64,000 nt of DNA from an uncultured Candidatus Rokubacteria bacterium (GCA_963758635.1 CAVWWD010000007.1:338946-402945), one strand, 5' to 3'; positions 21,349 through 64,000 are shown, counted from the first letter of the stretch. Translations and numbers: made by a program. Notes: a model not told the origin generated them from the sequence alone.

Positions 21349-21385
21349 CGCGCCGAGCGGCGCCGCCGCCCGGGCTGGCCTCGGC

Positions 21386-38136: not shown

Positions 38137-38145
38137 GGTGAGGCG

Positions 38146-38551
38146 ATGCGCAGACTGATCGTGATCGGCCTCGTCGTCGCGGGCAGCGTCGGTCCTTTCG
38201 AGGCTGGTGCCGCGGTTCCCGTCGACGGATCGACACCGCTGCTGTGCGCGGTGACCGAGGTGCAGGAGTGCGAGCCCGGAGGCGCCTGCCAGCGGCGCAC
38301 TCCGGAGGCAGTGAATCTCGCGCCGTTCGTCCGGGTCGACGTCAAGGCCAAGCGGCTCGGTAGCGATCGATGGCAGCCGGACGGCGCCGATCCAGGAGGC
38401 GACCCAGGTCGACGGCAAGCTGATCATGCAGGGCGGGCAGGAGGGGCGTAGCTGGGGCGCCGTGATCCTGGGAGAGACCGGGAGGTTTTCCGCAGGCGTC
38501 GTGGACCACGAGGTCGGGTTCCTCATCTTCGGCGTGTGCACGACGCCGTAG
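38146..38551 (+). CDS. small exported hypothetical protein, 1 frame disruption near 38355
   Basis: MRRLIVIGLVVAGSVGPFEAGAA...VRVDVKAKRL is in ORF 38146..38451. The sequence continues in another frame as AIDGSRTAPIQEATQVDGKLIMQGGQEGRSWGAVILGETGRFSAGVVDHEVGFLIFGVCTTP-stop (38549-38551). Confidence 0.5.
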
Positions 38552-38871
38552 GGTGGCCACGAGAACGTCGACCCACCCTCTTTCTGCTCGCGGCAGTCAC
38601 GGGGCATGGCCGGCAGGGTCAGGGTGTGCCGGGGTCATGGCGTGCCGCGCGCGGGGTCCGCCAACCCCGCCCGTGCCCGATGACTCGGAGCCCGCGCGCG
38701 ATCACTATGCCCCGCTCGCCTTCGCTCAACGCGAACGGCCGAACGGGCTTTCCCGGTCCGCTGCCGGGGCTCGCGGAGAGCCGCTGGAGAGCACACTGGA
38801 CCGGGCGCGACGTCCGCCACCCCAGCGGCGGGGGCGTGGATCGTTCCTATCCGCTCAGGCCGCCTGGTTCC

Positions 38872-40326
38872 TCATCCTGCCGTCCGCCGAATGCCGATGC
38901 GTCGAACGACCAACCGATAGGCGAGAGCGGCGATCCACACGGCTGCGACCAGAACCACGACCAAAATGATCAGCCGCGAAAAGGCGAAATCCACGAGTGC
39001 GCGCATGTCGGCCACCGTGCGGTGGGCCAGGTCGCTGACCTGGGGCGCGCCCGCGTTGAGCTGAACCATCAGCAATTCGAGCTGCCTCGCCGTCGCGGCA
39101 AATTCGCGCGCGGCGTTCGCGTAGTCGGCGATGTCGAACGGCTTGGCAGGTATGGCAGGCGCAGTGGACTCCTCCTTGGTCTTGTCGAACCGACCGAACA
39201 GCGAATCGATGCCGCGTAAAGTGCCCTGCAGCGAATCGAATGTCGCGGTTCCGGCTTCGAGTGCGCCTCTGAGCTCGCTGACCAGCGCCAACATCTGCTG
39301 CTGCCGCGCCACCATTTCCCGCATGAATTGACTGATCACGGCTTCACGCTCACGAGCCACCAGGTCTGGAAGTTGCCCAGCGACCCGCATGAATTGACTG
39401 ATCACGGCTTCACGCTCACGAGCCACCAGGTCCGGAAGTTGCCCAGCGACGTTGCCCACCGCCTCCGCTGCCAGGCTGACACGATCCACATCCTGCAGCG
39501 CGTCTCGTGTCTCAGGCATGCTAGCGATCTGATACGTGAGGCGTTCGACCTGCATGTCGAGCAGTCTGGGTGCACGTTGCAGGTAGTAGATCGTGCGCTC
39601 GGCGAGATTGCGCGTCTGGGCGATTTCCCGGACGGCCGGATCGAGGTTGCTCAACGGGTCGATGCCGACCAGCGAGAACAGGCTACCGCTCGATTTTGAC
39701 TCGCCAGGTCTCGGGCGACCGACCGCGCGGGCGAAGTCCCTGAAGTAAACGTACGCCACGGCGCGCACATGGGGATTCTTTAGGCGCCATTCCTCGATCA
39801 CCTGGCGCAACTGCTGAATCTGCCCTTCGGTCAGGACTTCGGACGCGAGCGCCCAGGCACCAGGTTCCAGATTGCGGTGCGCATCCCGGAGTGGCGCGGC
39901 GCGCTCGCCGTATTTCTCTTGAATCCACGAGTCCTCGATGACCATTCGACTCAAAGTGGCAAGCACCACCATGTCGAGCGCGTTGGTCACGGAGTTGGGG
40001 CCTGTGGCAATCGTATAGGCAGACGTCACCTGAGACAGTCTCCAATTCTGGGCGACCAGCCGCTCCGCAGCATCCTGCGTCTCCGTCTGAAAGCGTGTAA
40101 TCGGTCCGCTGATTCCTTCCGCATATTCGTCGGCAAAACGCATGACCTTGAGCTGTAGCTCCTGCAGCTTCGTGGCCTCGGCCTCGTCTTCTGCGCCAGT
40201 CAGCTTGCTGATCATCGCGCAGCCAGACAATCCCGTGACACTTGCCGCCAAGAGTAAGCTCGCGACCAGCACGGGCCTCAGACATCGCCGCGCAAGTATC
40301 GACACTAGCTTGGGCTCGCACTTCAT
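38872..40326 (-). CDS. hypothetical lipoprotein with coiled-coil-like body and a C-terminal TM anchor
   Basis: Starts at ATG 40326: MKCEPKLVSILARRCLRPVLVASLLLAASVTGLSGC (lipobox). The C-terminal helix is LIILVVVLVAAVWIAALAY. GC is lower. It contains a 22-aa exact tandem duplication. Confidence 0.6.
   Translation of the reverse strand: MKCEPKLVSILARRCLRPVLVASLLLAASVTGLSGCAMISKLTGAEDEAEATKLQELQLKVMRFADEYAEGISGPITRFQTETQDAAERLVAQNWRLSQVTSAYTIATGPNSVTNALDMVVLATLSRMVIEDSWIQEKYGERAAPLRDAHRNLEPGAWALASEVLTEGQIQQLRQVIEEWRLKNPHVRAVAYVYFRDFARAVGRPRPGESKSSGSLFSLVGIDPLSNLDPAVREIAQTRNLAERTIYYLQRAPRLLDMQVERLTYQIASMPETRDALQDVDRVSLAAEAVGNVAGQLPDLVAREREAVISQFMRVAGQLPDLVAREREAVISQFMREMVARQQQMLALVSELRGALEAGTATFDSLQGTLRGIDSLFGRFDKTKEESTAPAIPAKPFDIADYANAAREFAATARQLELLMVQLNAGAPQVSDLAHRTVADMRALVDFAFSRLIILVVVLVAAVWIAALAYRLVVRRIGIRRTAG
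39319..39450. repeat. tandem duplication, 2 x 66 bp (65/66 identical), in frame
   Basis: The unit is ccgcatgaattgactgatcacggcttcacgctcacgagccaccaggtc(t/c)ggaagttgcccagcgac. It encodes VAGQLPDLVAREREAVISQFMR twice. Confidence 0.9.
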
Positions 40327-40469
40327 CCGACTATCCATCCCCGGCTGAAATCGATCTCCCCGTGTGCTCTGCCGAGAGTTGTGCATCGCCTCTTGAACAG
40401 TCTGTCACGGAAATCATCTGCGCTGATCGCGATCTCAGCGGACAACGTCGGCGCCACGCTCGCGACGTT

Positions 40470-40615
40470 CACGCATGGCGGGGACCGCCCAGTCGAAACA
40501 AGACGCGAATTCCTACGACGTTGAACTGCTCGTCAACCTCAAATCGCGAAGACCCTCGGGCTGACGATCCCGCCGTCGCTCCTGGCGCGGGCGGATCAGG
40601 TGATCGAGTATGTGT
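40470..40615 (+). pseudogene. C-terminal remnant of an ABC_sub_bind (BMP-type) substrate-binding protein
   Basis: The reading is ...DRPVE...[11 protein letters not shown], then a frameshift, then [20 protein letters not shown]. This matches the stereotyped tail P-V-E-x-P-T-K-F/[30 protein letters not shown]. No N-terminal part is present. Confidence 0.6.
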
Positions 40616-40743
40616 CCGCCTATAGGACCCTTGGGTCCACTCCGAGCCACCCGCGCTCCCGTTCACGTAGCTACAGTATGGGATACCGGCACTACGATCA
40701 CTCCCGATATGCGGGCTGACCGAGATCAATTCCACCATTCCTC

Positions 40744-41787
40744 TTAGACTCCAGGCCAGAACGAGAAAAGTCGCTCGACGAACCAGAAGGCTGCCATCGT
40801 TCCGATGACGAAGGTCGCAGCCGGACGCATCAGCGCGCTCCAGTGGGCGGGAATCGGGAGACGCCGCACCAGCCCACGGAGCGTCAACATGGCCGCGATG
40901 AAGCCAAGCTGCCCGGCCTCGATGCCCACATTGAAGGCGAAGAGCGCGGGTGGAACATCGCCTTGGGGCAAGCCGATATCGGCCAGTGCGCTCGCAAAGC
41001 CGAAGCCGTGCAGGAGTCCGAACGCGAACGCCACAAGCCAGGGCCACTGCGCGGTGAGGCTGCGCTCGCCTCTGCGCTGCCGCGTCATCTCGCACGCGAG
41101 CAGGAGGATGCTCAGCGCGATGCTCGCCTCCACCGGTGGGCCCGGTACGTGCACGACACCCAGCGCCGACAAGCCCAGCGTGATCGAGTGCGCCAGCGTG
41201 AACGCGGTCACCGTCGTCACCAGCTTCCGCACGTTCCGCACGATCAGGATGAGCGCGAACACGAACAGCAGATGGTCATATCCGAGCAGGATGTGCTCGA
41301 CGCCGTGCAGGACATAGGCACTCGCCACGGCGATGGCTCCGCGCGCGGTTGGAATCACGATCCACGGCTGCGACGGATGGACGAGCGTCGTGGAATGCGC
41401 GCCATCGCGTGTTTCGACGCGCACGAGCACGTCAGTGATGGTGCCTTGCAAGCCGACGAACTCCATGCGCTTGCCGCCCAAACCGCCGGGCACGGCGATC
41501 AACCTGCGTTCGACGACCGAATCGGACAGCTCGTACAAGCCCGGGTTGGTGACGTTGGTGGCGCCATCGGGTAGCTGCAGCACCACGGGCAGCCGCATGC
41601 CGGAGACCACCGGCGTTCGCCACACGACGTCGAAGCGGTCGGGCGCCGTCTCGGTCAGCGCGAGATACGCCGGACGCGCTTCGTGAGCGTTCGCATGAAG
41701 GGCGTCCGCGAGCAGCATCAGGATCACCAGCGCCACCAGCGACAGCATCGCTTCGAGTGCGCGAACGGGACGCGATCGAGCGTTCAT
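40744..41787 (-). CDS. HupE/UreJ-family membrane protein with an N-terminal periplasmic domain
   Basis: Starts at ATG 41787 (MNARSRPVRALEAMLSLVALVILML). It carries HGVEHILLGYDHLLFVFALILIV and ...GLLHGFGFASAL. The start overlaps the upstream stop (ATGA). Confidence 0.8.
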   Translation of the reverse strand: MNARSRPVRALEAMLSLVALVILMLLADALHANAHEARPAYLALTETAPDRFDVVWRTPVVSGMRLPVVLQLPDGATNVTNPGLYELSDSVVERRLIAVPGGLGGKRMEFVGLQGTITDVLVRVETRDGAHSTTLVHPSQPWIVIPTARGAIAVASAYVLHGVEHILLGYDHLLFVFALILIVRNVRKLVTTVTAFTLAHSITLGLSALGVVHVPGPPVEASIALSILLLACEMTRQRRGERSLTAQWPWLVAFAFGLLHGFGFASALADIGLPQGDVPPALFAFNVGIEAGQLGFIAAMLTLRGLVRRLPIPAHWSALMRPAATFVIGTMAAFWFVERLFSFWPGV

Positions 41788-51073: not shown

Positions 51074-51559
51074 ATGATGAACGCAGAGCCTCAGAGGGAA
51101 CACAAGTGGCTGGAGAAGCTCGTGGGCGAGTGGACGTACGAGACGGAGGGCGTGATGGAGCCGGGCAAGCCCGCCGAGAGGTGCGGGGGCACGGAGCGCG
51201 TGCGGTCGCTCGGGAGCCTCTGGATCGTCGCCGAGGGACAGGGAGAGATGCCGGGCGGCGAGGCGGCCACCATGCTCATGACGCTCGGCTTCGACCCGGA
51301 CAAGAAGCGCTTCGTCGGCACCTGGGTCGGGTCGATGATGACCCACATGTTCGTCTACGACGGCGCCCTCGATCCGGCCGAGCGCGTACTCGTGCTGGAG
51401 TCCGACGGCCCCTCGATGGCCGGCGACGGGACGATGGCCCGATACCGCGACGCCATCTCGATCGAGAGCGACGACCACCGCGTGCTGACCTCGAGCGTGC
51501 GGGCCCCGGACGGCACGTGGCAGCCGTTCATGACCGCGCACTACCGGCGGAAGAAGTGA
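51074..51559 (+). CDS. DUF1579-domain protein
   Basis: Starts at ATG 51074: MMNAEPQREHKWLEKLVGEWTYE...RFVGTWVGSMMTHMFVYDG... Confidence 0.65.
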   Translation: MMNAEPQREHKWLEKLVGEWTYETEGVMEPGKPAERCGGTERVRSLGSLWIVAEGQGEMPGGEAATMLMTLGFDPDKKRFVGTWVGSMMTHMFVYDGALDPAERVLVLESDGPSMAGDGTMARYRDAISIESDDHRVLTSSVRAPDGTWQPFMTAHYRRKK

Positions 51560-51618
51560 CCGCCGAGGCGGTCGCGGCAGCCGGTCGGCTCCCGGGCCTC
51601 GCGGCGCCGCGGGGCTCA

Positions 51619-52065
51619 TCAGCGGCGGCTCAGGGTCTCCGGTGACACGCGAAACGGGTTGACGACCCGCACCGGGCCCAGCATCGAGTCGTCCTGTAGA
51701 TCCTCGGTGAGCAGGTAGGCGCAACCCGCCACCTCGGCCGCGGCGGCGATCAGCGAGTCCCACCACGAGAGCCGGTGGCGGTCCTGGATGCGCCACGCGC
51801 CCTCGAGCACCCGCGTGTCGATGGGAACCGGCCGCCACGGAAGGAGCGACCGTACGACCTGGCGCGCCGCCGCGCGGTCGAGGCCGGGATCCAGCTTCTC
51901 CGTCACGGTCACGTAGAACTCCTGGAGGACCTGATAGCTCAGCCGGCCCTGCCGCGTGTTCCACAGGTGCGCCATCCAGCTGGCCGCCTTCCTGTGCTTG
52001 TCGAGCTCCGCGGTATCGCGGCTGTAGACGAGGACGTTGGTGTCGACGAAGACGTCACCGGCCAT
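51619..52065 (-). CDS. vapC: PIN-domain toxin (VapC family)
   Basis: 148 aa. It starts FVDTNVLVYSRD, carries ...SWWDSLIAAAAEVAGCAYLLTEDL, and is intact. It overlaps vapB by 11 nt. Confidence 0.8.
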   Translation of the reverse strand: MAGDVFVDTNVLVYSRDTAELDKHRKAASWMAHLWNTRQGRLSYQVLQEFYVTVTEKLDPGLDRAAARQVVRSLLPWRPVPIDTRVLEGAWRIQDRHRLSWWDSLIAAAAEVAGCAYLLTEDLQDDSMLGPVRVVNPFRVSPETLSRR

Positions 52066-52291
52066 AGAGGTCGGCTCGCTTCGGGTATCGGGTCGTCGGC
52101 TTCCGGAGCTTCCTGGCCGGGCGCGCCAGGTACTCGCGCCGCGCCACCTCGTAGCTCTGCTCTTCGTGCATCTTCTCGCGCAAGAGTTCTCCGACCAGGC
52201 GCGACATGCTCGTGTCCAGTTCAGCGGCCCGGATTCTCGCCCACCGGGCGACGTCCTCGTCGAGGGTGATCGTCACGTTGCGCAGGCTCAC
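52055..52291 (-). CDS. vapB: ribbon-helix-helix antitoxin (VapB-like)
   Basis: Starts at GTG 52291: VSLRNVTITLDEDVARWARIRAAELDTSMSRLVGELL. A direct repeat agtgtag x2 (52298-52304 and 52314-52320) just upstream is a possible operator. Confidence 0.7.
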   Translation of the reverse strand: MSLRNVTITLDEDVARWARIRAAELDTSMSRLVGELLREKMHEEQSYEVARREYLARPARKLRKPTTRYPKRADLYGR

Positions 52292-52361
52292 TGAGGAAGT
52301 GTAGCACGAAAACAGTGTAGATATGCAGAGCGCGAGCGGCTCCACGGGGGCGGCGGCCCGG

Positions 52362-53251
52362 TCAGTAGAGTGAGTCGCGCGTCTGCTGCGCGAGCCGCGC
52401 CCGCAGCCGCTCGTCGATCTCCTGCTGGATGTTCTGGAGCGCCGAGGCCACGAGATGGCCGACCGCGGTCAGCGCCACCTCGGCCTCGGACTTCTCGGCG
52501 GTGATCATCGCGCGCTCGTTCCGCGCGAGCAGGAATCCCGCGGGCGCGTCGCCCTTGCCGGCCAGCGCGACACAGAAGGCGGCGGTGTCGAGCGCGCTGC
52601 TCGAGCCTACCTCGAGCGACAGCGTCCCCGCGAAGCTCGACGCCTGCGGTCCCGCCGCGGCCACCTGAGCCATCTCGTCGTTGAACACGTTGTAGACGTA
52701 CGCGGCCGCCGACCACTCGCCTTCCAGGTGCAGGATCAAGCGGTGGAGCACGGCGGTCAGGAAGCCGGCCTCGTCCTCGTACCGCCGCGACGTGAGGTCA
52801 CCGACATCGTAGAGGAGCGCGACCAAACGGGACGAGCGCCGCAGCCGCTGGGAGAGGATGCGCAGCAGCTCTACGACGAGGCCCACGGCCAGCCACTGCT
52901 CGAGCATCGGCCCGCCCAGGACGAAGAGGGTCGTATCCGTGTGCGCGACCGCTCGCGCCGAGCGCGGCCGGTTCTCGATGAGGGCCATCTCCCCGAGGAC
53001 GTCGCCGGGCGACAGGACGGCCAGCTCGGCGAAGCCGCCCGCCTCCACGCGCTTCTCGATGCGCACCCGCCCCACGGCGAGCAGGAACATCGCGTCGCCC
53101 GGGCGTGCCTTCCTCGAAGATCAGGCCGCCCGCCGGGACGGTCTGCACGACGAGGATGCGCGCCAGCTCCTCGATCTTGGCGTCCGGCGAGGTGGCGAAA
53201 CAGCGGGAGCGCGCGGAGCTGGCCGACCCGCTCCCGCGTGTCGTCGGTCAC
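52362..53251 (-). CDS. cyclic-nucleotide-binding domain protein with a C-terminal GAF-like region, 2 frame disruptions (near 53190 and 53098)
   Basis: LRALPLFRHL | PDAKIEELARILVVQTVPAGGLIFEEGTPG | DAMFLLAVGRVRIEKRVEAGGFAELAVLSPGDVLGEMALIENRPRSA is spread over three frames. The remainder is in ORF 52362..53090. The GTG start at 53251 is tentative (see findings). Confidence 0.7.
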
Positions 53252-53282
53252 GGCGCGCTCCGCCCGGCCCGGCGGCCGGCCA

Positions 53283-54394
53283 TCACACGCCCCGCCATCC
53301 CGCCGGAGACCGGAGAGCAGCCGCACCTGGTCGGGGTTGTGAGCCTTGGCCAGGGCTACGCGGGCATCGACCAGCCCGCTCTTGATCACCTCGGCCAGCG
53401 ACCGGTCCATCGTCGTCATCCCGAACTGTGCGCCGGTCTCGATGGCGCTGTAGATCGTGTGGGGCTTGCCCTCGCGGATCTGGTTCGCGATGGCCGGCGT
53501 CACGACCATCAGCTCCCGGACGGCCACCCGCCCCTTGCCGTCCCGGCGCGGGAGCAGGAGCTGCGCGATGACGGCCCGGAGGGAGTTCGCGAGCTGGACG
53601 CGGATCTGGTCCTGCTGGCGGGCCGGGAACACGTCGATGATCCGCGCCACCGTCGAGGGGGCGTCCTGGGTGTGCAGCGTCCCGAAGCACAGGTGACCGG
53701 TCTCCGCGGCGGTGACGGCGAGGCCGATCGTCTCGTGGTCCCGCATCTCCCCGACCAGGATGATGTCCGGATCCTCCCGCAGCGCGGCGCGGAGCGCGTT
53801 CGGGAACGACTTCGTCGTCTGTCCGACCTCACGCTGAGTGATGATCGATCGCTTGTCCTCGTAGACGAACTCGATCGGATCCTCGATGGTCAGGATGTGC
53901 TCGGAGCGGGTGCGGTTGGCGCGCTCGATCAGGCAGGCCAGGGTCGTCGACTTGCCCGACCCGGCGGGCCCGGTGACGAGGACGAGGCCGCGCGGGAGCG
54001 ACGCCAGGTCGAGCATGGCGGGCGTGAGCCCGATGGCCTCCGGGTCCGGGATGTCCACGCCGATGACGCGAAGAGCCGCCTCGACGCCGTTCCGGCTCAT
54101 CAGCACGTTGAGGCGGAAGCGCGAGAGGCCGTGCACCTCGTACGACCAGTCGAGCTCCCAGCTCTCCTCGAACCGGGCCCGCTGATCGTCGGGGAGCATC
54201 GAGTAGATCAGCGCCTGGGCAGCCTCGCGATCCAGCGCGGGGAGAGACGGGTCGATCGCGACGATCGTGCCGTTCTTGCGCATCATGGGCGGCCGCCCGA
54301 CGCGGAGGTGGATGTCGCTGCACCGCTGGTCGACAGCCGCCTTGAGGACCGTCACGAGGTCCACGGCGTGGCGTCCGGGGCCGACGGCGCTCAC
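53283..54394 (-). CDS. pilT: PilT-family type IV pilus retraction ATPase (copy 2); 3' end not defined by a stop in frame
   Basis: The GTG at 54394 overlaps the upstream stop (GTGA). It carries GLVLVTGPAGSGKSTT (Walker A), ILVGEMRD and HLCFGTLHT. The printed frame has no stop until 52871, so the end given here is approximate. Confidence 0.8.
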
Positions 54395-55530
54395 CGTCCG
54401 GTCGCTCCGGTGGACGTGCTCGGAGACGCGACGGCCCGGGCATCCGCGAGCCCCTGCGTCTGCAGGCGGATCCGCAGGTCGTTCGGGTTCGGGCTGACGG
54501 CCAGCGCCTCCTCCACGGAGATTGTCCGGGCCGTGAGGTGCGCGAGGAGCGCCTGGTTGAGGGACTGCATCTTGTAGAACGTGGCCGAGTCCTCGATGGC
54601 CTTGCCGAGCGCGCCGATCTTGTCGTCCTCGATGAGCTTCTGCACGGTCGGCGTGTTGATCATCACTTCCTGCACGGCCACCCGGCCCGGCCGGTCGGCG
54701 CGCTTCACGAGGCGCTGGGACACGACGGCGAGGAGGCATTTCGCGAGCTGCATGCGGGTCTGGTGCTGGCTCTCGGGCGCGTACGCGTCCAGGATCCGGT
54801 CGATGGACTGCTTGGCGTCGTTCGTGTGCAGGGTCCCGAAGACCAGGTGGCCCGTCTCGGCCGCGCGGAGCGCCGTGCTGATGGTCTCGGCGTCCCGCAT
54901 CTCGCCGACCAGGATCACGTCTGGATCCTGGCGCAGGGCGCGGCGGAGCCCCTCCGCGAACGCACGGGTATCGGCGCCGATCTCACGCTGGTTGATGACG
55001 CCGAGGGCATCCTCGTACACGAACTCGATCGGGTCCTCCAGGGTGACGATGTGGACCGGCCGGTGTCGGTTGATGTGGTCGATGATCGCGGCGAGCGTCG
55101 TGGTCTTGCCGGACCCCGTGGGGCCCGTCACCAGGAACAGCCCCTGCGGGCGAAGGGCGAGCTCCTTCAGGATGGCCGGCGCGCCCAGGTCGTCGAGGCT
55201 GGGTACCTTGGCCGGGATGAGGCGGAACACGGCGCCGGGCAGCCCCTTCTGGAAGAAGGCGTTCCCGCGGAAGCGGCCCAGGCCCGGGACCGCGAACGAG
55301 AAGTCCAGCTCCTTGTCACGCGTGAGCGTGGACCGCTGATCCCCGTCGATGACGCTGCCGATCAGGCGCTCGACGGCCTCTGCCGCGAGCACCGGGCGCC
55401 CGCCCATGGGGACCAGGTCGCCCTGAAGCCGCATCATGGGGGGCCGGCCGACCTTCAGATGGAGGTCGCTCGCCCCCCTCTCGGCGAGCGTCTGCAAGAG
55501 CGCGGACATGGTGGTCGACCCGTCTTCCAT
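54391..55530 (-). CDS. pilT: PilT-family type IV pilus retraction ATPase (copy 1)
   Basis: Starts at ATG 55530 (MEDGSTTMSALLQTLAERGASDLHLKVGRPP). It carries GLFLVTGPTGSGKTTT, ILVGEMRD and HLVFGTLHTNDA, and is intact. Confidence 0.85.
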   Translation of the reverse strand: MEDGSTTMSALLQTLAERGASDLHLKVGRPPMMRLQGDLVPMGGRPVLAAEAVERLIGSVIDGDQRSTLTRDKELDFSFAVPGLGRFRGNAFFQKGLPGAVFRLIPAKVPSLDDLGAPAILKELALRPQGLFLVTGPTGSGKTTTLAAIIDHINRHRPVHIVTLEDPIEFVYEDALGVINQREIGADTRAFAEGLRRALRQDPDVILVGEMRDAETISTALRAAETGHLVFGTLHTNDAKQSIDRILDAYAPESQHQTRMQLAKCLLAVVSQRLVKRADRPGRVAVQEVMINTPTVQKLIEDDKIGALGKAIEDSATFYKMQSLNQALLAHLTARTISVEEALAVSPNPNDLRIRLQTQGLADARAVASPSTSTGATGR

Positions 55531-55633
55531 TCGTGTTCCCTCGAATGCGCCCGCGTCGCTTGAGGAGCACGCGGTGGGCACGGTCCAGCCATCGATACCA
55601 TACCCCGGCGGCGGGCAACAGCCGAGCGCCCGC

Positions 55634-56161
55634 TCACCTCTGGCCGGACAGGATGCGGAAGGCCTCCACGATCTGCGGCACCTGATCCGGACGGATCCCC
55701 GACTCGGGCATCCGCTGCATCCGCCGGATCGTCGCCACCTGCTGCGTCGGGGTCTGGAGCACGAGGCGGCTCAGCACCGCCTCGGTGTGGCAGCGGGTGC
55801 ACTGGAGCATGGTGAGCGAGGCCTGGATGACCTGGAACTCCTCGGCGGGGATGTTCGCCCCGGGGTGCGTGCTCATGCGCGCGATCGTGTCCAGGATGGG
55901 CTGGCGCTCCCAGCCGAGCGCGGCGGCGAACCGGCGGTCGGTGTGGCACCGGCCGCAGCGCTGGTCGAGGATCTGCTGGATGCGCAGCGGGCGCAGCGCG
56001 GCCACGTCGTCCTTGGTGACCAGGCGGTCGGGCAGCGCGCGCACCTCGTTCCGCACCACGAGCAGCTCGCTGATCAGGAACAGGGTGAGGACGAGGTTGA
56101 CCGCGACGACCAGCGCCAGGACGAAGGCCAGCCGGGAGCTCAGGCCGGAGGGGGCCGTCAC
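55634..56161 (-). CDS. membrane-anchored diheme c-type cytochrome
   Basis: The GTG at 56161 overlaps the NrfD stop (GTGA). It has a TM helix (LAFVLALVVAVNLVLTLFLI) and two CXXCH motifs (CGRCH, CTRCH). Confidence 0.65.
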   Translation of the reverse strand: MTAPSGLSSRLAFVLALVVAVNLVLTLFLISELLVVRNEVRALPDRLVTKDDVAALRPLRIQQILDQRCGRCHTDRRFAAALGWERQPILDTIARMSTHPGANIPAEEFQVIQASLTMLQCTRCHTEAVLSRLVLQTPTQQVATIRRMQRMPESGIRPDQVPQIVEAFRILSGQR

Positions 56162-57333
56162 GAGGCGGCCTGCGCGACGGGGCCCGCCGGCGCGCGGGAG
56201 GCCTCCGGCTCGAGCGGAGGCTCCGTGTGGATCGGGAGCCACCGTACCAGGTAGATGTACGCGAGGATCATCCCCGCCATCGCGCCCACCGAGATCAGCA
56301 CCTCGGTGGGGGCCGGCCGGTAGCTCTCCCAGCTGTGCACCTTCATCGTGAGCACCGCGGCGTTGAGCCGATTCAGCACCACCCCGACGACGACGCACGC
56401 CGCCGCCCCGCACATCGCCCACTTGCGGTGCTCCACGTCGGGCATCAGCAGGAGGGCCAGCGGGACCAGGAGCCCGACGAGCATCTCGAGCCAGAACCAG
56501 CGCGCCTCGAACCCGAACGAGAGCGCGGCGTCGCCCACGCCCCGGTAGAGGACGTCGCCGATCCGGAGCGCGAGGTAGGCGGCGACCAGCACGGTGAGGC
56601 CGCGCGCGAGGCTCCGCAGCACGTCCATGCGGGGCTGCAGCCGCAGGAAGTGCGTGGCGAGCGTGTGCTCGACGATCATCACCGCGGGGCCGGCCATGAT
56701 CGCCGAGAACAGGAAGAACACGGGGAGCAGCTCGGAGTGCCAGAGCTCGTGGACCTTGGTGGGCAGCAGCAGCAGCAGCGTGCCCAGCGAGGACTGGTGG
56801 AGCGACGAGAGCGACACGCCGGTGATGACGATCAGGAGGTACACGGCGTTGATGCGCCGGACCGGCCAGTGCCATCCGAGCTTGGCGAAGACGAGCGGGC
56901 TGAATTCCAGCACGAGGACCGTGGTGTAGGCCACCGCGCAGAGCGCCACCTCGTACATGGCCGAGGTGGGGGCCCAGGACAGGAACACCATCCAGATCAT
57001 CCACGGCCGGCCGAGCTCCACCATCAGCACCGCGGCGTAGGTGACGTACCAGAGGAGGCCCACGAGGAGCGCGGCGCGCACGATGTGACGCAGCCCCTTG
57101 ATGTCGAAGATCTCGCCCGCCGCGGCCATGGTGAAGCCCACGCCACCGAGCGCGATCCGCGTCAGCATGTCGAAGCCCACCCACCATCCCCAGGGGTACG
57201 CCTGGTTGATGTTGGCGATGGTGGCGAGGCCCGTGGCGAAGCGGACGATGGTGGCGACCACGGCGGCCAGCACCAGCACCCACAGGGTGCCCAGGACCGG
57301 CCACGGCCAGCGCGGCCGCTCAGTGGTCGTCAT
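56158..57333 (-). CDS. NrfD/PsrC/HybB-type integral membrane (quinone-interacting) subunit
   Basis: Intact 391-aa ORF with about 10 TM segments, starting MTTTERPRWPWPVLGTLWVLVLAAVVATIVRFATGLATIANINQAYPWGWWVGFDM. It overlaps the beta-subunit gene by 14 nt. Confidence 0.75.
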   Translation of the reverse strand: MTTTERPRWPWPVLGTLWVLVLAAVVATIVRFATGLATIANINQAYPWGWWVGFDMLTRIALGGVGFTMAAAGEIFDIKGLRHIVRAALLVGLLWYVTYAAVLMVELGRPWMIWMVFLSWAPTSAMYEVALCAVAYTTVLVLEFSPLVFAKLGWHWPVRRINAVYLLIVITGVSLSSLHQSSLGTLLLLLPTKVHELWHSELLPVFFLFSAIMAGPAVMIVEHTLATHFLRLQPRMDVLRSLARGLTVLVAAYLALRIGDVLYRGVGDAALSFGFEARWFWLEMLVGLLVPLALLLMPDVEHRKWAMCGAAACVVVGVVLNRLNAAVLTMKVHSWESYRPAPTEVLISVGAMAGMILAYIYLVRWLPIHTEPPLEPEASRAPAGPVAQAAS

Positions 57334-58134
57334 GCTCCTCGTGCTCGTCGTGGGCCCAGAAGCGGAAGCGGCGCTTGACGATCATCGCGATGACCGCCAT
57401 CGTCACCCACACCGTGCCGAAGATCTTCGGCGTGAAGTGCAGGAGCTTGCTGGTGATGACCGGCGGCGCCTTGTCGGGCAGGTTCGCCGGATAGCCGAGC
57501 TTCTCGAACGGGACCGACGAGAGGTGCAGGACGGAGGTGCCGCCGACCTCGTCGAGGCCGTAGATGTGGGGGATGTAGTGCCGAGGCGCGCTCGCGATGC
57601 GCCGCCGCGCCTCCTTCACCATGTCGTCCCGGTCGCCGAACGTGATGGCGCCGGTCGGGCACACCTGCGCGCACGCCGGCTGCTTGCCCACCTGGATGCG
57701 ATCGGCGCAGAACGTGCACTTGTGGATGGCGGGCACGACCCGGTCGTAGTCGAACTTCGGCACGATGAACGGGCACGCCTGCATGCAGTACCGGCAGCCG
57801 ATGCAGCGCCACGAGTTGAAGACCACCGGCCCGTCGGGGGTCTTCGTGGAGCGCCGTGGTCGGGCACGCGGACGCGCACGCCGGATCGAGGCAATGCATG
57901 CACAGCAGGCGGCCGAACACCCAGTCGGGATGCCCGTTCGGGCCGGCCTCGACCCCCGTGAAGGTGATCACGGTGTAGTTGTTCGGGTCGAGATCGCGCG
58001 GGTTCTGGTAGCCCGGCGCCGGCGAAGAAGGTCGTGTCGTCGCCGGGGAGATCGTTCCACGCCTTGCACGCCACCATGCAGGCCCGGCACCCGATGCACC
58101 GGGTGTTGTCCTGGATCATCGCCTTCAGCGCCAT
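57320..58134 (-). CDS. formate dehydrogenase beta (4x[4Fe-4S] ferredoxin) subunit with a C-terminal TM helix, 2 frame disruptions (near 58010 and 57838)
   Basis: MALKAMIQDNTRCIGCRACMVACKAWN | YQNPRDLDPNNYTVITFTGVEAGPNGHPDWVFGRLLCMHCLDPACASACPTTALH | DGPVVFNSWRCIGCRYCMQACPF...CTFCADR...CAQVCPTGA is spread over three frames. Both junctions lie at G or C runs. Confidence 0.8.
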
Positions 58135-61100
58135 CAGGCGGCCCCCTTCCGGCGGACGTCGCACGAGGAACGCCTTGAACTCCGGGATCATCGTGTTGGC
58201 GTCGCCCACGTGCGGCGTGAGCACGTTGGCGCTGTCGCCCTTCGCGAGGCCGAGCCAGCCCCAGTGCCACGGCACGCCGACCTGGTGGATGATCCGCCCC
58301 GTCACCCAGAACGGCTCGAAGCGGTCGGTCACGAGGGCGTAGGCCTCGTACGCCCCTCGCGCGCTCTCCACGATGACCCGGTCGCCGTTGGCCACGCCCT
58401 TCACCCTCGCCAGGTCGCGTCCGATCTCCACGAAGGCGTCGGGCATGAGGCCCGACGAGCCACGGCATCTTCCGGCTCATCGCCCCGGTCTGCCAGTGCT
58501 CGGACACGCGATACGTCGTGGCCACGATCGGGAAGCGGTCCGGGCTCGCCGATGGCGTCCAGCCCGGGCGTGTTCCACACCTTGATCGACGGGGTCGTAC
58601 TGGACCGAGGACATCGGGTTCTTGATCGGGCTCTCCACGGGCTCGTAGTGCTCGGGGAAGGGGCCGTCGGCCAGGCCCGGCGCGAAGAGGTCGGCCCGCC
58701 CCGAGGTGGTCATGATGAACGGGGTCGATCGCCTCGCGGCGGGCCGCCGCCGTCCGGCACGTCGCCTTCCCACTTCTTGTCCGCCGCGTTCCAGCGGATG
58801 ACCCAGCGCCGCGGGTTGAACGGCTGGCCGGCGGGGGAGATCGACGCGCGGTTGTAGAGGATGCGGCGATTCGCCGGCCACGCCCACGCCCAGCCGGGAT
58901 AGAGCCCGATCTTGTTCGGCGCGTCCGTCGGGTCGCGGCGCGCCGCCATGTTGCCCTCGTCGGTGTACGAGCCGCAGTAGAGCCAGTTCCCGGACGCGGT
59001 GGAGCCGTCGTCGCGGAGCTGGGCGAAGGCCGGGACCTGGCCGCCCGCCTTGAAGGCCCGCCCGTCCGCCGCGGTCACGTCCTTCAGGAAGCGGCCGTTG
59101 ATCTCCTTGGCCACCGCGTGCACGTCGGCGTGCTCCGCGCCGTAGTCCCAGTGAGGTGCACGATGGGCTCGGGCCGCGCGCCGCCGCCGGCGTACGCCTT
59201 CTTCAGGGCTCGGGCCAGGCAGCGTCAGGATGTCGGTGTCGGGCAGGGACTTGCCCAGAGGCTTCGTGGCCGCGTACCGCCACTGCATCCAGCGCCCGCT
59301 GTTGACGATGCTGCCTTCCTTCTCGACGGCGCCGGCGGCGGGGAGCAGGAACACCTCGGTGCGGATGTCGGCGGGCTTCACGCCGGGCCGCTTCCAGTGG
59401 GCGTAGCTCTCGTTCTCGAAGAGGTCGGCGGCGACCATCCACTCGAGCTTGTCGAGCGCGACCCGCGCGAAGGTGGAGTTCGGCCCGCCCACCGCGGGGT
59501 TCTGGCCGAAGCAGAAGAGGCCCTTGATCTGCCCCGCGTTACATGGCCTCGAACAGCGCGATGTGCGAGTAGCCCGCGCCCTGGAAGCCGGCGCCGAGCT
59601 TCGGGAGGTAGTCGTAGGCGAAGCCGTTGGCCGCCGTCGCGTGATCGCCCCACCACGCCTTGAGCAGGCTCACCAGGTAGGCGGGCGTGTGCTTCCACCA
59701 GTTGGCCGCGCGCGCGTCGATGGCCACGGGGACGACGCGGCGGAGGTAGTCGTCCATCGTCCGGTCGGCCTGGACGGGCATCTTCATGTAGCCGGGCAGG
59801 CTGTCGAAGATGAGGCCCTGGTCGGTCGAGCCCTGCACGTTGGACTCGCCGCGCATGGCGTTGATCCCGCCGCCCGCGATCCCGAGGTTCCCCAGGAGGA
59901 GCTGGAGGATGGCGTAGGACCGGATGTTCTGGGTGCCGTGCGTGTGCTGGGCGGTGCCCATGGCGTAGAGCCACGTGCCGGCGCGGTCGGGGGCGAACGT
60001 GGAGGTGAAGTGGTCGCAGACCCTCGCGTACGTCTCGGGCGGCGTGCCGGTGATCGCGCACACCGCCTCCGTCGTGTAGCGGGAGAAGTGCTGGCGCAGG
60101 AGCTGGAGCACGCAGCGCGGATGGCGGAGCGTCGGGTCCTGCCGGGGGCGGCCCTGCGCGTCCACCTCGAAGGCCCACGTCGACTTGTCGTAGCGGCGGG
60201 CCACCTCGTCGTAGCCCGAGAACAGCCCGTCCTTGAACTGGAAGTCCTCCCGCACGAGGTAGGACGCCGTCGTGTACGCGCGCACGTACTCCCACTGCAC
60301 GCGGTCGTGGGTCAGCGCGTAGTTGATCATGCCGCCCACGAACGCGATGTCGGTGCCCGAGCGCATCTTGGCCCAGACGTCGGCGATGTGGGACGTGCGG
60401 TTGAAGCGGGGATCGACCTGGAGCACGATGGCGCCGCGCTCCTTGGTCTTCCGGATCCAGTTCATCGCGATCGGGTGGTTCTCGGCGGGGTTGCCGCCCA
60501 TGATCATCACCACGTCGGCGTTGATCATGTCCACCCAGTGGTTCGTCATCGCCCCGCGTCCGAGGGTGGCCGCCAGACTGGCGACCGTGGAGCTGTGTCA
60601 GATCCGGGCCTGGTGCTCCAGGTAGACGATGCCGAGCGCGCGCATCAGCTTGGCGAGGAGGTAGCACTCCTCGTTGTCGAGCGCGGCGCCGCCCAGCGAG
60701 GCGATCGCCTCGGTCCGGCTCACGACGGTGCCGCCCGCCTCGAGCTGGAAGGTGGCGTCGCGGGTCGCCTTCACCCGCTCGGCGATGCGCGACATCATCC
60801 AGTCCCAGGACTTCTCCTCCCACCGGTCGCTCCCGGGCGCGCGGTAGAGGGGGACCTTCAGCCGAAGCGGGTTGTTCGTGACCTGGGCGGCGGCGGCGCC
60901 CTTGCTGCAGAGGGTGCCCTCGTTGACGGGGTGGTGAGGATCCCCCTCGATGCTGAGGACCTTGCCGTCCTTGACCGACACCACCTGACCGCAGCCCACG
61001 CCGCAGAACGGGCAGACCGTCGTGGTCTCCTTGGCCCCCGCCGTCTTCGGGGCGGGGACGGACGCCGCCTCGGCGGGGTTCGGAACCCCGACGGCGCCAC

Positions 61101-61155
61101 CCAGAGCCCCGATCTTGCCGATCGAGCCGAGGAACTGCCGACGTGTGGGGGCCAT
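58134..61155 (-). CDS. Tat-exported selenocysteine-containing formate dehydrogenase alpha subunit (Mo/W-bisPGD), about 7 frame disruptions in the C-terminal two thirds
   Basis: MAPTRRQFLGSIG is the Tat motif. CPFCGVGCG is the N-terminal FeS site. EHQARI-TGA(60598-60600)-HSSTVASLAATLGRGAMTNHW continues in the same frame, which is the classical FdnG/FdhA Sec site. Later conserved blocks lie in ORFs 59539..60549, 58710..59492, 58477..58887, 57968..58525 and 57616..58446. Confidence 0.85.
60568..60586 (-). other. candidate SECIS hairpin
   Basis: The RNA GGUCGCC-AGUCU-GGCGGCC forms a 7-8 bp stem including one G-U pair. It starts 11 nt 3' of the in-frame UGA. Confidence 0.45.
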
Positions 61156-61166
61156 CAGAAACCTGC

Positions 61167-61448
61167 CTACTTGCCTCCCGGATACTCCTTCAGCCAGCCC
61201 GCGTCCACGTCCTTGGCCTTGCGCTTGTCCTTCTCCGCGAGCAGCCACTTGCCACGCTCGTTCAGGTCGTCGGCCTTGTACGTTTCCTTCTTCGGCATCG
61301 CCGATGCGTGGCAGTACTGGCAGTTCTGAGCGGGCATGCCCGCTGACTTCGCCTTCCCCACGAGCGGCGGGCTCGCCGCCGCGGGGAGCGTGGAGAGCGT
61401 CAGCACGGCACCCGCCACCATCGCGCTGATCATCGTCGTCCGGATCAT
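61167..61448 (-). CDS. small exported monoheme c-type cytochrome
   Basis: 93 aa with the signal peptide MIRTTMISAMVAGAVLTLSTLPAAA and a single CQYCH motif. It ends 11 nt upstream of the fdh alpha start. Confidence 0.65.
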   Translation of the reverse strand: MIRTTMISAMVAGAVLTLSTLPAAASPPLVGKAKSAGMPAQNCQYCHASAMPKKETYKADDLNERGKWLLAEKDKRKAKDVDAGWLKEYPGGK

Positions 61449-61520
61449 CGAGTGACCTCCTCGCCCGGGCCACCTCGGCCTCGGGCTTCTGTCGACAGGG
61501 TCATGGGGGCCCCGGGGTCA

Positions 61521-63766
61521 TTAGAAGCGGTACCCGAGCGTCACGGCCAGGATGTGGGCCGTGTAGTCCTTGATGTCGTTGCCGAGCCAGAGCGAGCTGA
61601 CGCCGGGGACGAACGGGTCCAGCTGGTCGGTCCTCCAGTTGCTCTTCTCGAACACCTCGAACGCGTAGGAGAGCGTGGCGTACCACTTCTTCCAGAAGTG
61701 GTACCGCACGGCGGCGTCGAGCCGGAACATGCTGTCCTCGGTCGCCGGCATGCGCTTGCCCTGGGCGGTCTGCTGCTGCGAGACGCTGCCGCTCGTCACC
61801 GCGCCGGGGTTTCGGGTGTGGAGCTCGCCGAGGGCGTACTCGTAGCGGGCGCCGAACAGGAAATCGAGGACGCCGGGGATCGCGATGGCGCGGAGCCCCA
61901 GGTGGAACGCGTGGATCCGGTCGGCGTTCACGGTGATCCAGTCGAAGTCGGGGAACATCGCGGGCGGACGTTTTCCACGGGCCGGCTGCGCGAGACCTGC
62001 TTCTGCATGATCGACTCGTAGTTGTAACCGGCGGTCACGGCGAGGCGTTCCGACGGCGCCCACGTGAGGTCGACGCCGGCCGTCCAGTTCTCGCCGCTCT
62101 GGAGCCCGAGCCTCGAGTTGTAGTAGTCGTCCATCCGGTAGCTGCCGGTGAGCGCGGCGGTCAGCCCGTCGAGGGGGGTGAACTCGAGCATCACGTCGAC
62201 GCGCTGGCGATCCCGGTCGGACTCGTCCAGCTTCCGCAGGAGCGGCGACTGTCCCTGGGAGATCTGCGCCTGCTCCAGCTCCTCGAGCACGATGTGGGAG
62301 AGGCGGGCCGTCGTGTCGTACTCGTCGATCCGCCGGAACGACGGCCGGTAGGTCAGGCGGGCGACCAGCCAGTCCCACGGGCGTGACGTCCACCGCGGCC
62401 CGGACGAAGTACTCGTCGCTCCGCTGGACCTCGCGCCGGTCGCTCCGGTCCAGCCGCTCCCACCCGCCCCCGAGCCCGGCGGCCACCAGCGACCCGAAGC
62501 GCCAGCGGGCGTCGCCGTCCACGTTGTGCCGCGTGTACGGGTAGCGGGGCACGTTGCCGGGCTCGGTCACGAGCGTGCGGTCGCTCGTGACCGAGCCCGG
62601 CAGGACGAACTCGTCGGTCATGTCGTTGAAGTCGAAGAGGCGGTACTTGAGCGTCAGGGCCAGGGGGGGAAGCGGGCGGCTCGTGACGTTCGCGTTGAAC
62701 GTCGTGACGCCGACCACCCCTTCCAGGCTCTTCTTGCGGAAGCACGAGCACGGGCGAGGCGAGCCCGGTGTTGATCGTGTGCGGCAGGAAGTCCTGGTCC
62801 TGGAAGCGCAGGCTGTAGGTGAAGTTCCCGGTGATGCGCGTGCGCCAAAACGGCAGCGAGACGCCGCCGGCGATGTTGAACGTGTGGGCGCTGTTGTCGG
62901 GGGCGAGCGAGGTGCGACCCTCGGTCGGGCCGCCGCCGTCACCGGCGCAGCCGAATGCCGGCGGGAGGCCGGCGGGCGAGGCGCTGAGGCCCGAGCACGG
63001 GTTCGCCGAGACCACCCCGTCCAGGTCGTTCGTGAACAAGGAGAAGCGCATACCCCATGGTGAGCTGCCACGTTTCCCGGCTGATGACGGCGCGCAGCCG
63101 GAGGTCGTGGACGGTCTGGTTGATCGGCTCGAGGATCTCGTAGAAGTTTCCGCCCGGCGACCCGAACGCCATGCCCAGGGGGCGATCGCCGGACTTGTAC
63201 GTCCGGTTGTACTCGGCGATGAGGTCGATGTCGGGGGTCGGCGTCAGCTTGAAGGAGATCTTCGCCTGGTCCCAGCGGGTGGCGACCTCGTCCAGCTCGG
63301 GCGCCGCGTTGTGCTTCTCCAGGGTCGGGCGGGGAGTGGGCAGGTCGAACACGCCGCGCGGCCCCTCGGTGGCGAGGAAGCGGGCGTTCGTCGAGAACGT
63401 GTGGGGAATCTGGTTCCACTCGAAGGACCCTTCCCAGAGACCGAGGCGCCCGGCGCCGAGCGAGTACTCCTGGTCCTTCTGCCCCCACTTCGAGCCGCCC
63501 AGCTCGAAGAAGAGCTGCTGGTCGATCGTGGACAGCCGGAGGTCCAGATGGTCGAGGAACGGCCGATTCGCGGGGAGATCCCGGTACTCCTCGAACTTCG
63601 CGCTCTCGCTCCTGGACGGCTCGCCGGGGAGGAGGCGGAAGCCGGCTTCGGCCTCGCCTTCCAGCACCCAGCTGCCGCCGAGGACGGTCTGCGCCGAGAC
63701 GACGCGGGGCATCGACAGCGCCGAGAGGAACACCAGGACGAGGCCCGCGCGTCTCATGGTCTTCAT
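61521..63766 (-). CDS. MtrB/PioB-family-like outer-membrane beta-barrel, about 4 frame disruptions
   Basis: ATG 63766 follows a GGAG. It has the signal peptide MKTMRRAGLVLVFLSALSMPRVVSA. ...SAKFEEYRDLP... is recalled as typical of decaheme-associated OM proteins. It is about 745 aa, ends ...AHILAVTLGYRF, and sits immediately 3' of a decaheme gene. The pieces lie in ORFs 62939..63772, 62353..63051, 61521..63488 and 61928..62290. Confidence 0.6.
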
Positions 63767-63776
63767 GGGCACGCTC

Positions 63777-64000
63777 CTATCGGGTGAAGGCGTGGCCCGA
63801 CGGATGGTTCGTCCCGTGAATGATCGCGTGGCAGCTCAGGCACGAGCGGCCCATCGTGAACTTCAGGTCACCGGTGGCGCGCCCGTAGGGGCTCGTGGGA
63901 TGCCGCGTCTCGACGTGGCACTGCTGGCACAGGCGAGGCGCGTTCAGCGTGAGCATCTTGGCGTGGTTGCTGCCGTGGGGGTTGTGGCAGTTGACGCAGC
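63777..64000 (-). CDS. DmsE/MtrA-family multiheme c-type cytochrome, C-terminal 74 aa (5' part beyond the right edge)
   Basis: Own translation: CVNCHNPHGSNHAKMLTLNAPRLCQQCHVETRHPTSPYGRATGDLKFTMGRSCLSCHAIIHGTNHPSGHAFTR-stop. It has three CXXCH motifs and the MtrA-like terminal CH..(I/V)HGSNHPSG motif. Confidence 0.7.
   Translation of the reverse strand, partial: CVNCHNPHGSNHAKMLTLNAPRLCQQCHVETRHPTSPYGRATGDLKFTMGRSCLSCHAIIHGTNHPSGHAFTR

Follow-up and report, generated by a model that had tools for sequence, protein, structure and literature searches.

A formate dehydrogenase module encoded beside an MtrAB-type outer-membrane conduit in Rokubacteriales: a recurrent but facultative linkage

Here we describe a gene string in a 64,000-nucleotide (nt) stretch of DNA (the window; GCA_963758635.1 CAVWWD010000007.1:338946-402945) from an uncultured Candidatus Rokubacteria bacterium, in which a periplasmic selenocysteine formate dehydrogenase (FDH) is encoded directly after an outer-membrane electron conduit of the MtrA/MtrB type. 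Rokubacteriales are widespread uncultured bacteria of soil and groundwater, and their energy metabolism has been inferred from genomes only. The best explanation is that a respiratory gene string of a Rokubacteriales bacterium (Methylomirabilota), made up of two modules, the conduit and the FDH, is present in the window with its downstream two-thirds. The linkage of the two is recurrent and has been kept across deep divergence, but it is facultative. The adjacency suggests formate oxidation with extracellular minerals as the electron sink.

Seven collinear reading frames occupy positions 55634-64000 of the minus strand (Table 1). The string is real, and its coordinates and families are those that a sequence-only reading of this DNA had given: a decaheme cytochrome, a barrel, a monoheme cytochrome, three FDH subunits and a diheme cytochrome, every assignment of which held up in profile searches with frame-repaired proteins. 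The genes are closely packed. The gap is 4-10 nt between the mtrA stop and the start of the barrel gene (mtrB), 72 nt between mtrB and the monoheme gene, and 11 nt between the monoheme gene and fdhA. The remaining genes overlap, fdhA and the beta-subunit gene by 1 nt, the latter and nrfD by 14 nt, and nrfD and the diheme gene by 4 nt. No terminator-like sites were found on the coding strand inside the string, and promoter and terminator scans of the locus gave counts at or below shuffle expectation. The FDH and conduit genes are probably co-transcribed. Homologues of the barrel that carry a name are from Rokubacteria or Methylomirabilota, in metagenome-assembled genomes (MAGs) and soil metagenomes, and the 70% G+C content of the window is consistent with that origin.

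Table 1. Features of the gene string at the end of the window.
Feature	Position	Strand	Remarks
MtrA/DmsE-family decaheme cytochrome, 3' end	63777..64000	-	TIGR03508, PF09699; cut by window end
MtrB/PioB-family outer-membrane barrel, ~750 aa	61521..63772	-	TIGR03509, PF11854
Secreted monoheme cytochrome c (CQYCH), 93 aa, Lys-rich	61167..61448	-	intact open reading frame
Selenocysteine formate dehydrogenase alpha (FdhA), ~1004 aa, periplasmic, twin-arginine translocation (Tat) signal TRRQFL	58134..61155	-	TIGR01553
SECIS (selenocysteine insertion sequence)-like hairpin	60566..60597	-	8-bp stem, starts 15 nt after UGA first base; G and U in apical loop
Iron-sulfur beta subunit, 270 aa	57320..58134	-	HmcB/HybA-like
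NrfD-family integral membrane subunit, 391 aa, HybB-like	56158..57333	-	PF03916
Membrane-anchored diheme cytochrome c (CGRCH, CTRCH), 175 aa, N-terminal transmembrane (TM) helix	55634..56161	-	start overlaps nrfD stop by 4 nt

The window ends inside mtrA, and the genes upstream of position 64000 were inferred from relatives, namely the loci L061 and L057 and the 134-kb contig that encodes the barrel P0001 (loci of relatives are cited by L numbers throughout). All three have a common gene order that includes the seven window genes: PAS-LuxR regulator, NapC/NirT-family tetraheme cytochrome, 69-aa protein, MtrA, barrel, monoheme, fdhA, beta, nrfD and diheme. The barrels of P0001 and L057 are 81 and 77% identical to that of the window, and L061 is 98% identical to the window in DNA; in P0001's contig and in the short-read L057 all genes of the string are intact. 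The tetraheme protein (232 aa, four CXXCH motifs) matches PF03264, scores far below the NCBIfam cut-offs for NapC/NirT and NrfH, and is encoded two genes 5' of mtrA in P0001's contig, L057, L061 and L001. The 69-aa membrane protein encoded between the two has two helices. A CymA-like gene thus almost certainly lies just past position 64000, so that the CymA position is not taken by the FDH. The sequence-only reading, which had the FDH-NrfD module and the diheme filling that position, does not stand on this point, given the tetraheme gene in the four relatives. L045 is arranged otherwise: its mtrA comes after the genes for a NarL-type response regulator and the monoheme (L045 150-1506), and, unlike in the window's close relatives, no NapC/NirT gene is found in the 1.2 kb upstream. 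The PAS-LuxR regulator stays beside mtrAB in L004, L006 and L028 (3' of mtrB), where the FDH is absent, which makes the regulator part of the conduit module.

The frequency of the linkage was examined from both sides. On the conduit side, 27 barrel loci were obtained when one genome was scanned for each GTDB species, and these loci were then searched by tblastn; an FDH-side scan, in which metagenomes were searched with the diheme, gave 26 loci. The FDH module comes directly after mtrAB in at least seven distinct loci (window/L061, L057, P0001, L001, L023, L045 and L056), whose barrels range in identity to that of the window or P0001 from 98% down to ~52% and ~35%. Relatives do, then, keep the FDH genes beside the conduit genes, as the earlier reading required, in the same order in P0001, L057 and L061 and as plain adjacency in the further loci. 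What stands between mtrB and the FDH module varies, being the monoheme gene, the PAS-LuxR regulator or nothing. The regulator is found there in L001/L005 and L023, its stop overlapping the fdhA start; in L045 and L056 mtrAB lies immediately 5' of the FDH module. In a neighbor-joining tree of the barrels the linked loci take three positions: a clade of the window, P0001 and L057; L001, within a sister clade whose other members have no FDH; and L045, in a separate clade.

Of mtrA, the window retains the last 73 codons, with hemes 8-10 (three CXXCH motifs) and a TAG stop. The encoded tail aligns to the last 67 positions (192-258 of 258) of TIGR03508 with an E-value of 9e-17, is also matched by PF09699, and is 74% identical to the MtrA tail of L001. 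Full-length relatives are 319-342 aa long (319-324 aa in the closest ones) and have 10 CXXCH motifs. The orthologue in L057 has all ten, scores 258.9 bits on TIGR03508 against a cut-off of 192.2, and matches Shewanella MtrA (6R2Q_A) with 243 bits, all ten hemes being covered. The DmsE/MtrA nature that had been claimed for the cytochrome is thereby supported. The mtrA copy of L061, the locus with DNA 98% identical to the window, is frame-broken.

The barrel is likewise of the MtrB/PioB type, as had been proposed: the frame-repaired protein of 750 aa scores 258.1 bits on TIGR03509 (cut-off 240.05) and 298 bits on PF11854 (cut-off 23). Its N-terminus, MKTMRRAGLVLVFLSALSMPRVVSAQ, is a signal peptide and its C-terminus, LGYRF, an aromatic beta-signal. 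It is 81% identical to the intact P0001 over the full length, across all four frame breaks, and matches Shewanella MtrB (6R2Q_B) weakly (E 8e-8). The decaheme gene directly precedes the barrel gene in all 20-plus loci with upstream sequence. No gene of the MtrC/OmcA type (TIGR03507, PF22113) was found within 10 kb in P0001's contig, L001, L002, L057, L058 or L059; PF22113 left faint marks on cymA-like and mtrA genes, and the matches to TIGR03507 were sub-threshold. On this evidence from relatives, the conduit is judged to be of the two-component Mto/Pio type, with no surface cytochrome of the MtrC type.

The mtrAB pair has a further property. When the window or L061 is compared with L057, mtrA-mtrB has ~80% DNA identity, whereas both flanks have 95-98%. 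The divergent segment covers 61521-64000 of the window, 1900-5400 of L057 and 6500-9950 of L061, with breakpoints in the intergenic region between the 69-aa gene and mtrA and, downstream, at the mtrB stop. The pair thus looks like an exchangeable divergent allelic cassette within one population. Either recombination or diversifying selection acting on a structure exposed at the surface could account for the pattern.

In the FDH module, the model TIGR01553 (cut-off 814) matches two pieces of FdhA with 859 and 418 bits. The closest relative is the W/Sec FdhA of D. vulgaris (6SDR, 1144 bits), followed by that of D. gigas and then by E. coli FdnG (1KQF, 931 bits). Aligned with 6SDR and 1KQF, the protein conserves TRRQFL, CPFCGVGC, the U-H pair and the active-site Arg in RGESNVQG. 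The selenocysteine UGA stands at 60598-60600 in the context EHQARI-U-HSSTV, and in the consensus fold of eight relatives two pairs of the SECIS-like hairpin are kept through compensatory changes. The beta subunit has four CxxCxxCxxxC-type motifs (16 Cys) and one TM helix at the C-terminus, and it lacks its own signal peptide. It matches HmcB (256 bits) and HybA (245 bits) best, and on the FdnH model TIGR01582 its 178 bits are below the cut-off of 334. The membrane subunit matches PF03916 with 72 bits, the HybB model NF008133 with 260 bits over positions 19-373 of 377, and HmcC with 221 bits; a crude hydropathy scan gives at least eight hydrophobic segments. It is presumed to be the quinone site. 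FdhA, beta, NrfD and diheme form a fixed four-gene unit in the loci of the FDH-side scan.

The diheme gene is found directly 3' of nrfD in every locus with upstream sequence, whether a conduit is nearby or not. From this gene order and the start/stop overlap, the diheme appears to be a fourth subunit of the FDH module. Since it is present with or without a nearby conduit, it would belong to the FDH and not to the link between FDH and conduit. The family of 77 proteins has an N-terminal TM helix, and both CXXCH motifs, M96 and HPGA are invariant; each CXXCH is followed by a segment of the ...M..PG... type. Matches to class-I c domains such as PscC are faint (PF10643, E 1e-4; 3A9F, E 0.09), those in the PDB being at chance level. 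The AlphaFold model is acceptable, with a predicted local distance difference test score (pLDDT) of 78.

The monoheme has 236 homologues of 91-123 aa, all of them unnamed or 'hypothetical', with CQYCH, P52, K54, W68 and W85 invariant and no second conserved His or Met in the family alignment. It has no match in Pfam or NCBIfam, and single-sequence and profile searches of the PDB, which includes the solved MtoD, gave a best E-value of 0.4, a chance level. Its gene is always within or beside mtrAB/FDH clusters, though not always at one place. It lies between mtrB and fdhA in the window clade, 5' of the NapC/NirT gene in L001, L002, L006, L016 and L058, 5' of mtrA in L045, 5' of fdhA in L044, and 3' of the diheme gene in L031 and L036. 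Between the window and L057 it travels with the FDH flank, not with the divergent mtrAB. The monoheme had been said to sit in the 'MtoD position'; on the present evidence that likeness is positional only, considering the lack of a sequence match in the PDB, the lack of a second conserved His and the other positions in relatives. The protein is likely a periplasmic shuttle. No curated family model and no described function were found for either the monoheme or the diheme family.

The reading frames of the window are broken at several places, and the proteins were therefore read across frames, the profile scores being those after frame repair. The breaks were mapped by protein-guided frameshift-tolerant alignment and then, to the base, by DNA alignment to a relative. 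There are 14 frame-breaking single-base indels across the string: four in the barrel gene (near 63046, 62734, 62380 and 61956), eight in fdhA, where a ninth indel does not change the frame over a long stretch, and two insertions in the beta gene (near 58017 and 57846). Most of those mapped in 55634-64000 are one-base insertions outside homopolymers. We take the breaks to be consensus or assembly errors, because every gene is intact in L057 (a short-read JGI contig with ~97% DNA identity to the window in the FDH part), because L061 (long-read, 98% identical to window 51188-64000) has private indels of its own and none in common with the window, and because unrelated genes of the window are broken alike, a codon-position GC model giving similar frame switches in them. 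That so many indels in 8.3 kb mark a dead locus with genuine pseudogenizing breaks, a possibility that the earlier reading had kept in view, is scarcely tenable. Identity is undiminished around every break (81% to P0001 in the barrel protein, ~97% to L057 in the FDH DNA), and the long-read MAG loci L023, L028 and L056 also give fragmented matches of this type. The frame switches elsewhere in the window are near 6724 in a double ABC ATPase, near 11433 in a solute-binding protein, near 47924 and 48272 in a 5'-nucleotidase and near 53100 in a gene for a cyclic nucleotide (cNMP)-binding protein.

How might the two modules work together? We propose a single chain, from formate to the menaquinone pool and/or c-type cytochromes, and from there through the NapC/NirT protein, the monoheme and MtrA to an extracellular acceptor. 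Our confidence in the chain as a whole is evenly balanced. The Tat-exported selenocysteine FdhA would oxidize formate in the periplasm. Electrons would pass through the four-cluster HybA-like beta subunit to the HybB/NrfD-like subunit, which would reduce menaquinone; the complex would then have a Hyd-2-like layout, with FdhA replacing the hydrogenase. The diheme may provide a second exit from the complex, towards periplasmic cytochromes. Menaquinol would be re-oxidized by the NapC/NirT protein, and the monoheme would carry electrons to MtrA inside the barrel. The final acceptor would be outside the outer membrane and could be Fe(III), Mn(IV) or humics. The modules would meet at the menaquinone pool, their adjacency being kept for co-expression and not as a fixed supercomplex. 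The analysis establishes the identity and order of the parts, the intact genes of relatives and the repeated adjacency; the quinone coupling, the roles of the two small cytochromes, co-transcription and, above all, the outward direction of electron flow are what we infer in this chain.

The outward direction is suggested by the company the FDH module keeps away from mtrAB. In L040/L041 (1-5000) it adjoins frdAB (flavoprotein and FeS subunits), aspA (an aspartase/fumarase-class lyase) and an anaerobic C4-dicarboxylate carrier. In L064/L065 it has nrfH-nrfA on its 5' side and cytochrome b, frdA, fumarase, frdB and a dicarboxylate carrier on its 3' side (L064 2448-4509 and 10610-15148). These are electron-accepting respiratory genes, as would suit a donor module that stands beside terminal reductases. 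Fumarate reductase and Nrf systems classically draw on formate in enteric and epsilonproteobacterial respiration. By analogy, the CymA-like protein with MtrAB would be a terminal reductase for extracellular acceptors. Formate oxidation is also downhill, the potentials being ~-430 mV for formate/CO2 and ~-80 mV for menaquinone. Of the two directions that had been offered before, formate-driven outward transfer thus fits the neighborhood better, and CO2 reduction fits less well.

A number of results weigh against the chain. Most mtrAB loci in the GTDB scan, and most of the more distant ones among them, have no FDH, and the FDH module occurs without mtrAB in L034/L035, L040/L041, P0266's contig and L064, so that of the informative FDH loci seven are with a conduit and four without. 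Clearly, the mtrAB and FDH modules work without each other. Because each is found alone, the linkage is considered facultative, and to call it 'dedicated', as the sequence-only reading had done, is too strong for an FDH module that is also found beside fumarate reductase or nrfHA and for a conduit that mostly stands without it. The ~80% identity of mtrAB against 95-98% in the flanks, between the window and L057, gives the modules different histories. Structure prediction lends no help: the monoheme model (36-sequence alignment) has a pLDDT of 52, too poor for fold comparison, and a Foldseek search of the PDB with the diheme model gave no E-value lower than 0.88; the long TM helix probably dominated the comparison. 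Finally, the characterized MtrC-less conduits (MtoAB, PioAB) are electron-uptake or Fe(II)-oxidizing systems, and the Rokubacteria PioAB homologues were so read in a 2023 survey (PMC10654088). The separate occurrence of the modules in many genomes and their differing sequence histories would suit the view that the adjacency is an accident of genome arrangement, with no functional or regulatory tie. We think this very unlikely, however, since same-strand adjacency recurs with gaps of at most ~120 nt among loci whose barrels are ~35-60% identical, and does so with a varying intervening gene; we estimate that two ~5-kb modules would come to lie together by chance in far fewer than 1% of multi-megabase genomes.

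The direction and the wiring could also differ from those of the proposed chain. The conduit and the FDH may be two electron-input modules under shared regulation, the former taking up electrons from Fe(II) or minerals into NapC/NirT and quinones in the manner of MtoAB/PioAB, the latter being a second donor, and both serving O2 or nitrate respiration. This arrangement is unlikely, though it has several points in its favor: the lack of an MtrC/OmcA-type gene within 10 kb in relatives; a composition (monoheme, NapC/NirT, decaheme, barrel) equal to that of the Sideroxydans Mto cluster (PMC13390432); a published network analysis that puts Rokubacteria next to PioA/PioB; and the conduit of L059, which is flanked by Rieske/cytochrome b genes and a module like alternative complex III (ACIII), as in Fe(II) oxidizers. 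It sits poorly, however, with the other neighbors of the FDH module, which are terminal reductases and not donor systems. MtrAB-family conduits are moreover reversible in vitro and in vivo, and Mto parts carry current in Shewanella (PMC13390432), so the architecture alone does not fix the direction.

It is improbable, in our judgment, that the FDH is wired directly to the conduit, from the diheme to the monoheme to MtrA, bypassing quinones, so that the conduit would have the FDH-NrfD-diheme complex and not CymA as its inner partner. In favor of such a wire, the diheme gene invariably comes next after nrfD, its start overlapping the nrfD stop, and the monoheme gene is found now with the conduit, now with the FDH (L001, window, L044, L031/L036) and goes with the FDH flank in the window as compared with L057. 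L045, in the arrangement regulator-monoheme-mtrA-mtrB-fdhA, has no NapC/NirT gene in the upstream 1.2 kb. Desulfovibrio FdhABC3 offers a precedent for a periplasmic FDH with a cytochrome subunit. Yet loci without a nearby conduit have the diheme just as well, the closest relatives of the window do have a NapC/NirT gene, the NrfD subunit argues for quinone coupling, and the potential of the diheme may be too high to feed MtrA if it is a His/Met class-I cytochrome. We hold it just as doubtful that FdhA-beta-NrfD-diheme is a new four-subunit formate:cytochrome c/quinone oxidoreductase that wires formate through the monoheme and MtrA to extracellular acceptors. If it were, a wire driven in reverse by proton-motive force could enable an abundant but uncultured soil lineage to reduce CO2 with extracellular electrons. 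The whole chain might even run in reverse, conduit-derived electrons reducing CO2 to formate at the FDH with proton-motive force applied through the HybB-like subunit. The D. vulgaris W/Sec FdhAB, to which the alpha subunit is most closely related, is a good CO2 reductase. The HybA/HybB-containing Hyd-2 of E. coli works reversibly and in coupling with proton-motive force (PMC8076601). Such a reversal is nevertheless barely credible: electrons would have to climb ~350 mV from quinol to CO2, the formate would arise in the periplasm, and the other neighbors of the FDH module are electron-consuming reductases.

The proposed chain can be set beside several known systems. In Sideroxydans, the periplasmic monoheme PmcA, encoded next to the NapC/NirT protein ImoA, connects ImoA to MtoA, and MtoD does not (PMC13390432). 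The order monoheme-NapC/NirT-mtrA-mtrB in L001 matches this pmcA-imoA-mtoA-mtoB logic. As in the Mto cluster of Sideroxydans lithotrophicus ES-1 (pmcA-imoA-mtoD-mtoA-mtoB) and in PioAB of Rhodopseudomonas palustris, there is a decaheme cytochrome with a barrel and no surface MtrC, and as in the former, the cluster includes a NapC/NirT tetraheme (in relatives) and a small periplasmic monoheme. In contrast to the Mto and Pio clusters, of which those described have no FDH beside them, the conduit here adjoins one; there is no high-potential iron-sulfur protein; a 69-aa membrane protein and a PAS-LuxR regulator are additional; and the 93-aa monoheme has no detectable similarity to solved cytochromes. 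The likeness to Shewanella MtrCAB/CymA lies in an MtrA homologous over ten hemes, in a barrel of the MtrB family and in the proposed passage from formate through quinol and NapC/NirT to Mtr. Here, however, MtrC/OmcA is missing, the barrel is a distant relative of MtrB, and the FDH has NrfD and a diheme cytochrome c where that of Shewanella has a cytochrome b anchor. The fdh genes of Shewanella are not known to adjoin mtr.

In the characterized loci that the sequence-only reading named (mtrCAB, pioABC and mtoAB-mtoD-cymA), the inner partners were given as small cytochromes, CymA or a HiPIP, not a molybdoenzyme. This overlooked dmsEFAB of Shewanella oneidensis, the one described case in which an MtrAB-type conduit (DmsE, DmsF) is encoded beside a molybdopterin enzyme and its FeS subunit (PMC9732548). 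The logic there is the opposite of ours, DmsAB being a terminal reductase and the FDH an electron donor. DmsAB is also extracellular and has no membrane subunit, whereas the enzyme described here is predicted to have inner-membrane anchors. An extracellular FDH on the DmsEFAB model is rejected in view of these predicted anchors, the TM-tailed beta, the NrfD subunit and the TM-anchored diheme. Several distant conduit loci have other molybdoenzyme modules, or a bc1-like or ACIII-like complex, in their vicinity. In L059, another locus of the Rokubacteria type (2134-8894 and 14486-21691), the conduit stands between a Rieske/cytochrome b complex with multiheme cytochromes and an ACIII-like module with Mo-pterin-like, FeS and NrfD proteins and cytochromes c.

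For the FDH itself, the nearest named system is 'FqoABC', a formate:quinone oxidoreductase that has been named and is uncharacterized (Calisto & Pereira 2021, PMC8076601). FqoC has 8 TM helices and is found in Actinobacteria, Chlorobi, Chloroflexi and Crenarchaeota, and 10 TM helices are predicted for HybB (PMC8076601). FqoABC and E. coli Hyd-2 HybA/HybB share with the module described here an FdnG-like alpha, a four-cluster FeS subunit and a heme-free NrfD-like anchor. Unlike in FqoABC, the membrane subunit here aligns over the whole HybB model (the 10-TM type), being set apart from FqoC by description, and a fourth gene, that of the membrane-anchored diheme cytochrome c, is always present. 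The alpha subunit is related to those of D. vulgaris FdhAB (6SDR) and E. coli Fdh-N (1KQF), with the Sec-His pair and Arg conserved and Tat export in common. The D. vulgaris enzyme, however, is soluble with a small three-cluster beta; E. coli Fdh-N (FdnGHI) has the diheme cytochrome b FdnI where the present module has an NrfD/HybB-type anchor, and the beta subunit here is below the FdnH cut-off.

In wet soils formate commonly arises from fermentation, and Rokubacteriales may oxidize it by passing the electrons to minerals or humics. Until now, the PioAB/MtoAB-like genes of this lineage have been interpreted as pointing to iron oxidation; the recurrent and probably co-expressed pairing with an FDH offers a testable alternative. 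Two small cytochrome families are flagged as well, the 93-aa monoheme that travels with conduits and the membrane-anchored diheme fixed in an FDH of the NrfD type. In the literature searched, the coverage of which was partial, we came across no account in which an FDH is joined with a conduit of the MtrAB type, or in which the diheme is a constant subunit of an FDH. PioAB homologues in Rokubacteria have been reported before (PMC10654088), and NrfD-anchored FDHs have been noticed (PMC8076601). The parts are thus of known families, and it is the arrangement of known modules that is new.

Some observations concern the rest of the window. On the 3' side of the diheme gene and on the same strand (52362-55581) are two tandem PilT/T2SSE-type ATPase genes and the cNMP-binding gene, a group conserved in P0001's contig and in L061. 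P0001's contig also has, after the diheme gene, two pilT-like ATPase genes and a cNMP-binding gene, together with a PIN toxin pair; the window has the same genes in a slightly different order. The pair in P0001's contig consists of DUF6364 and PIN genes and is located between the diheme gene and the pilT genes. In the window the PIN-domain gene (51619-52065) overlaps a small upstream gene (52055-52345), its apparent toxin-antitoxin partner. Farther away, a stretch of ~6 kb (34921-40996) does not have the strong third-position G+C signal, and its open reading frames (35159-36265, 36822-37511 and 38872-40386) have no assigned function. An rRNA operon was suspected there from the vanished signal and was rejected, as Rfam found no rRNA in the window; the stretch may be acquired DNA. 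According to Rfam, the sole RNA gene in the window is a tRNA-Gly (CCC) at 25579-25653.

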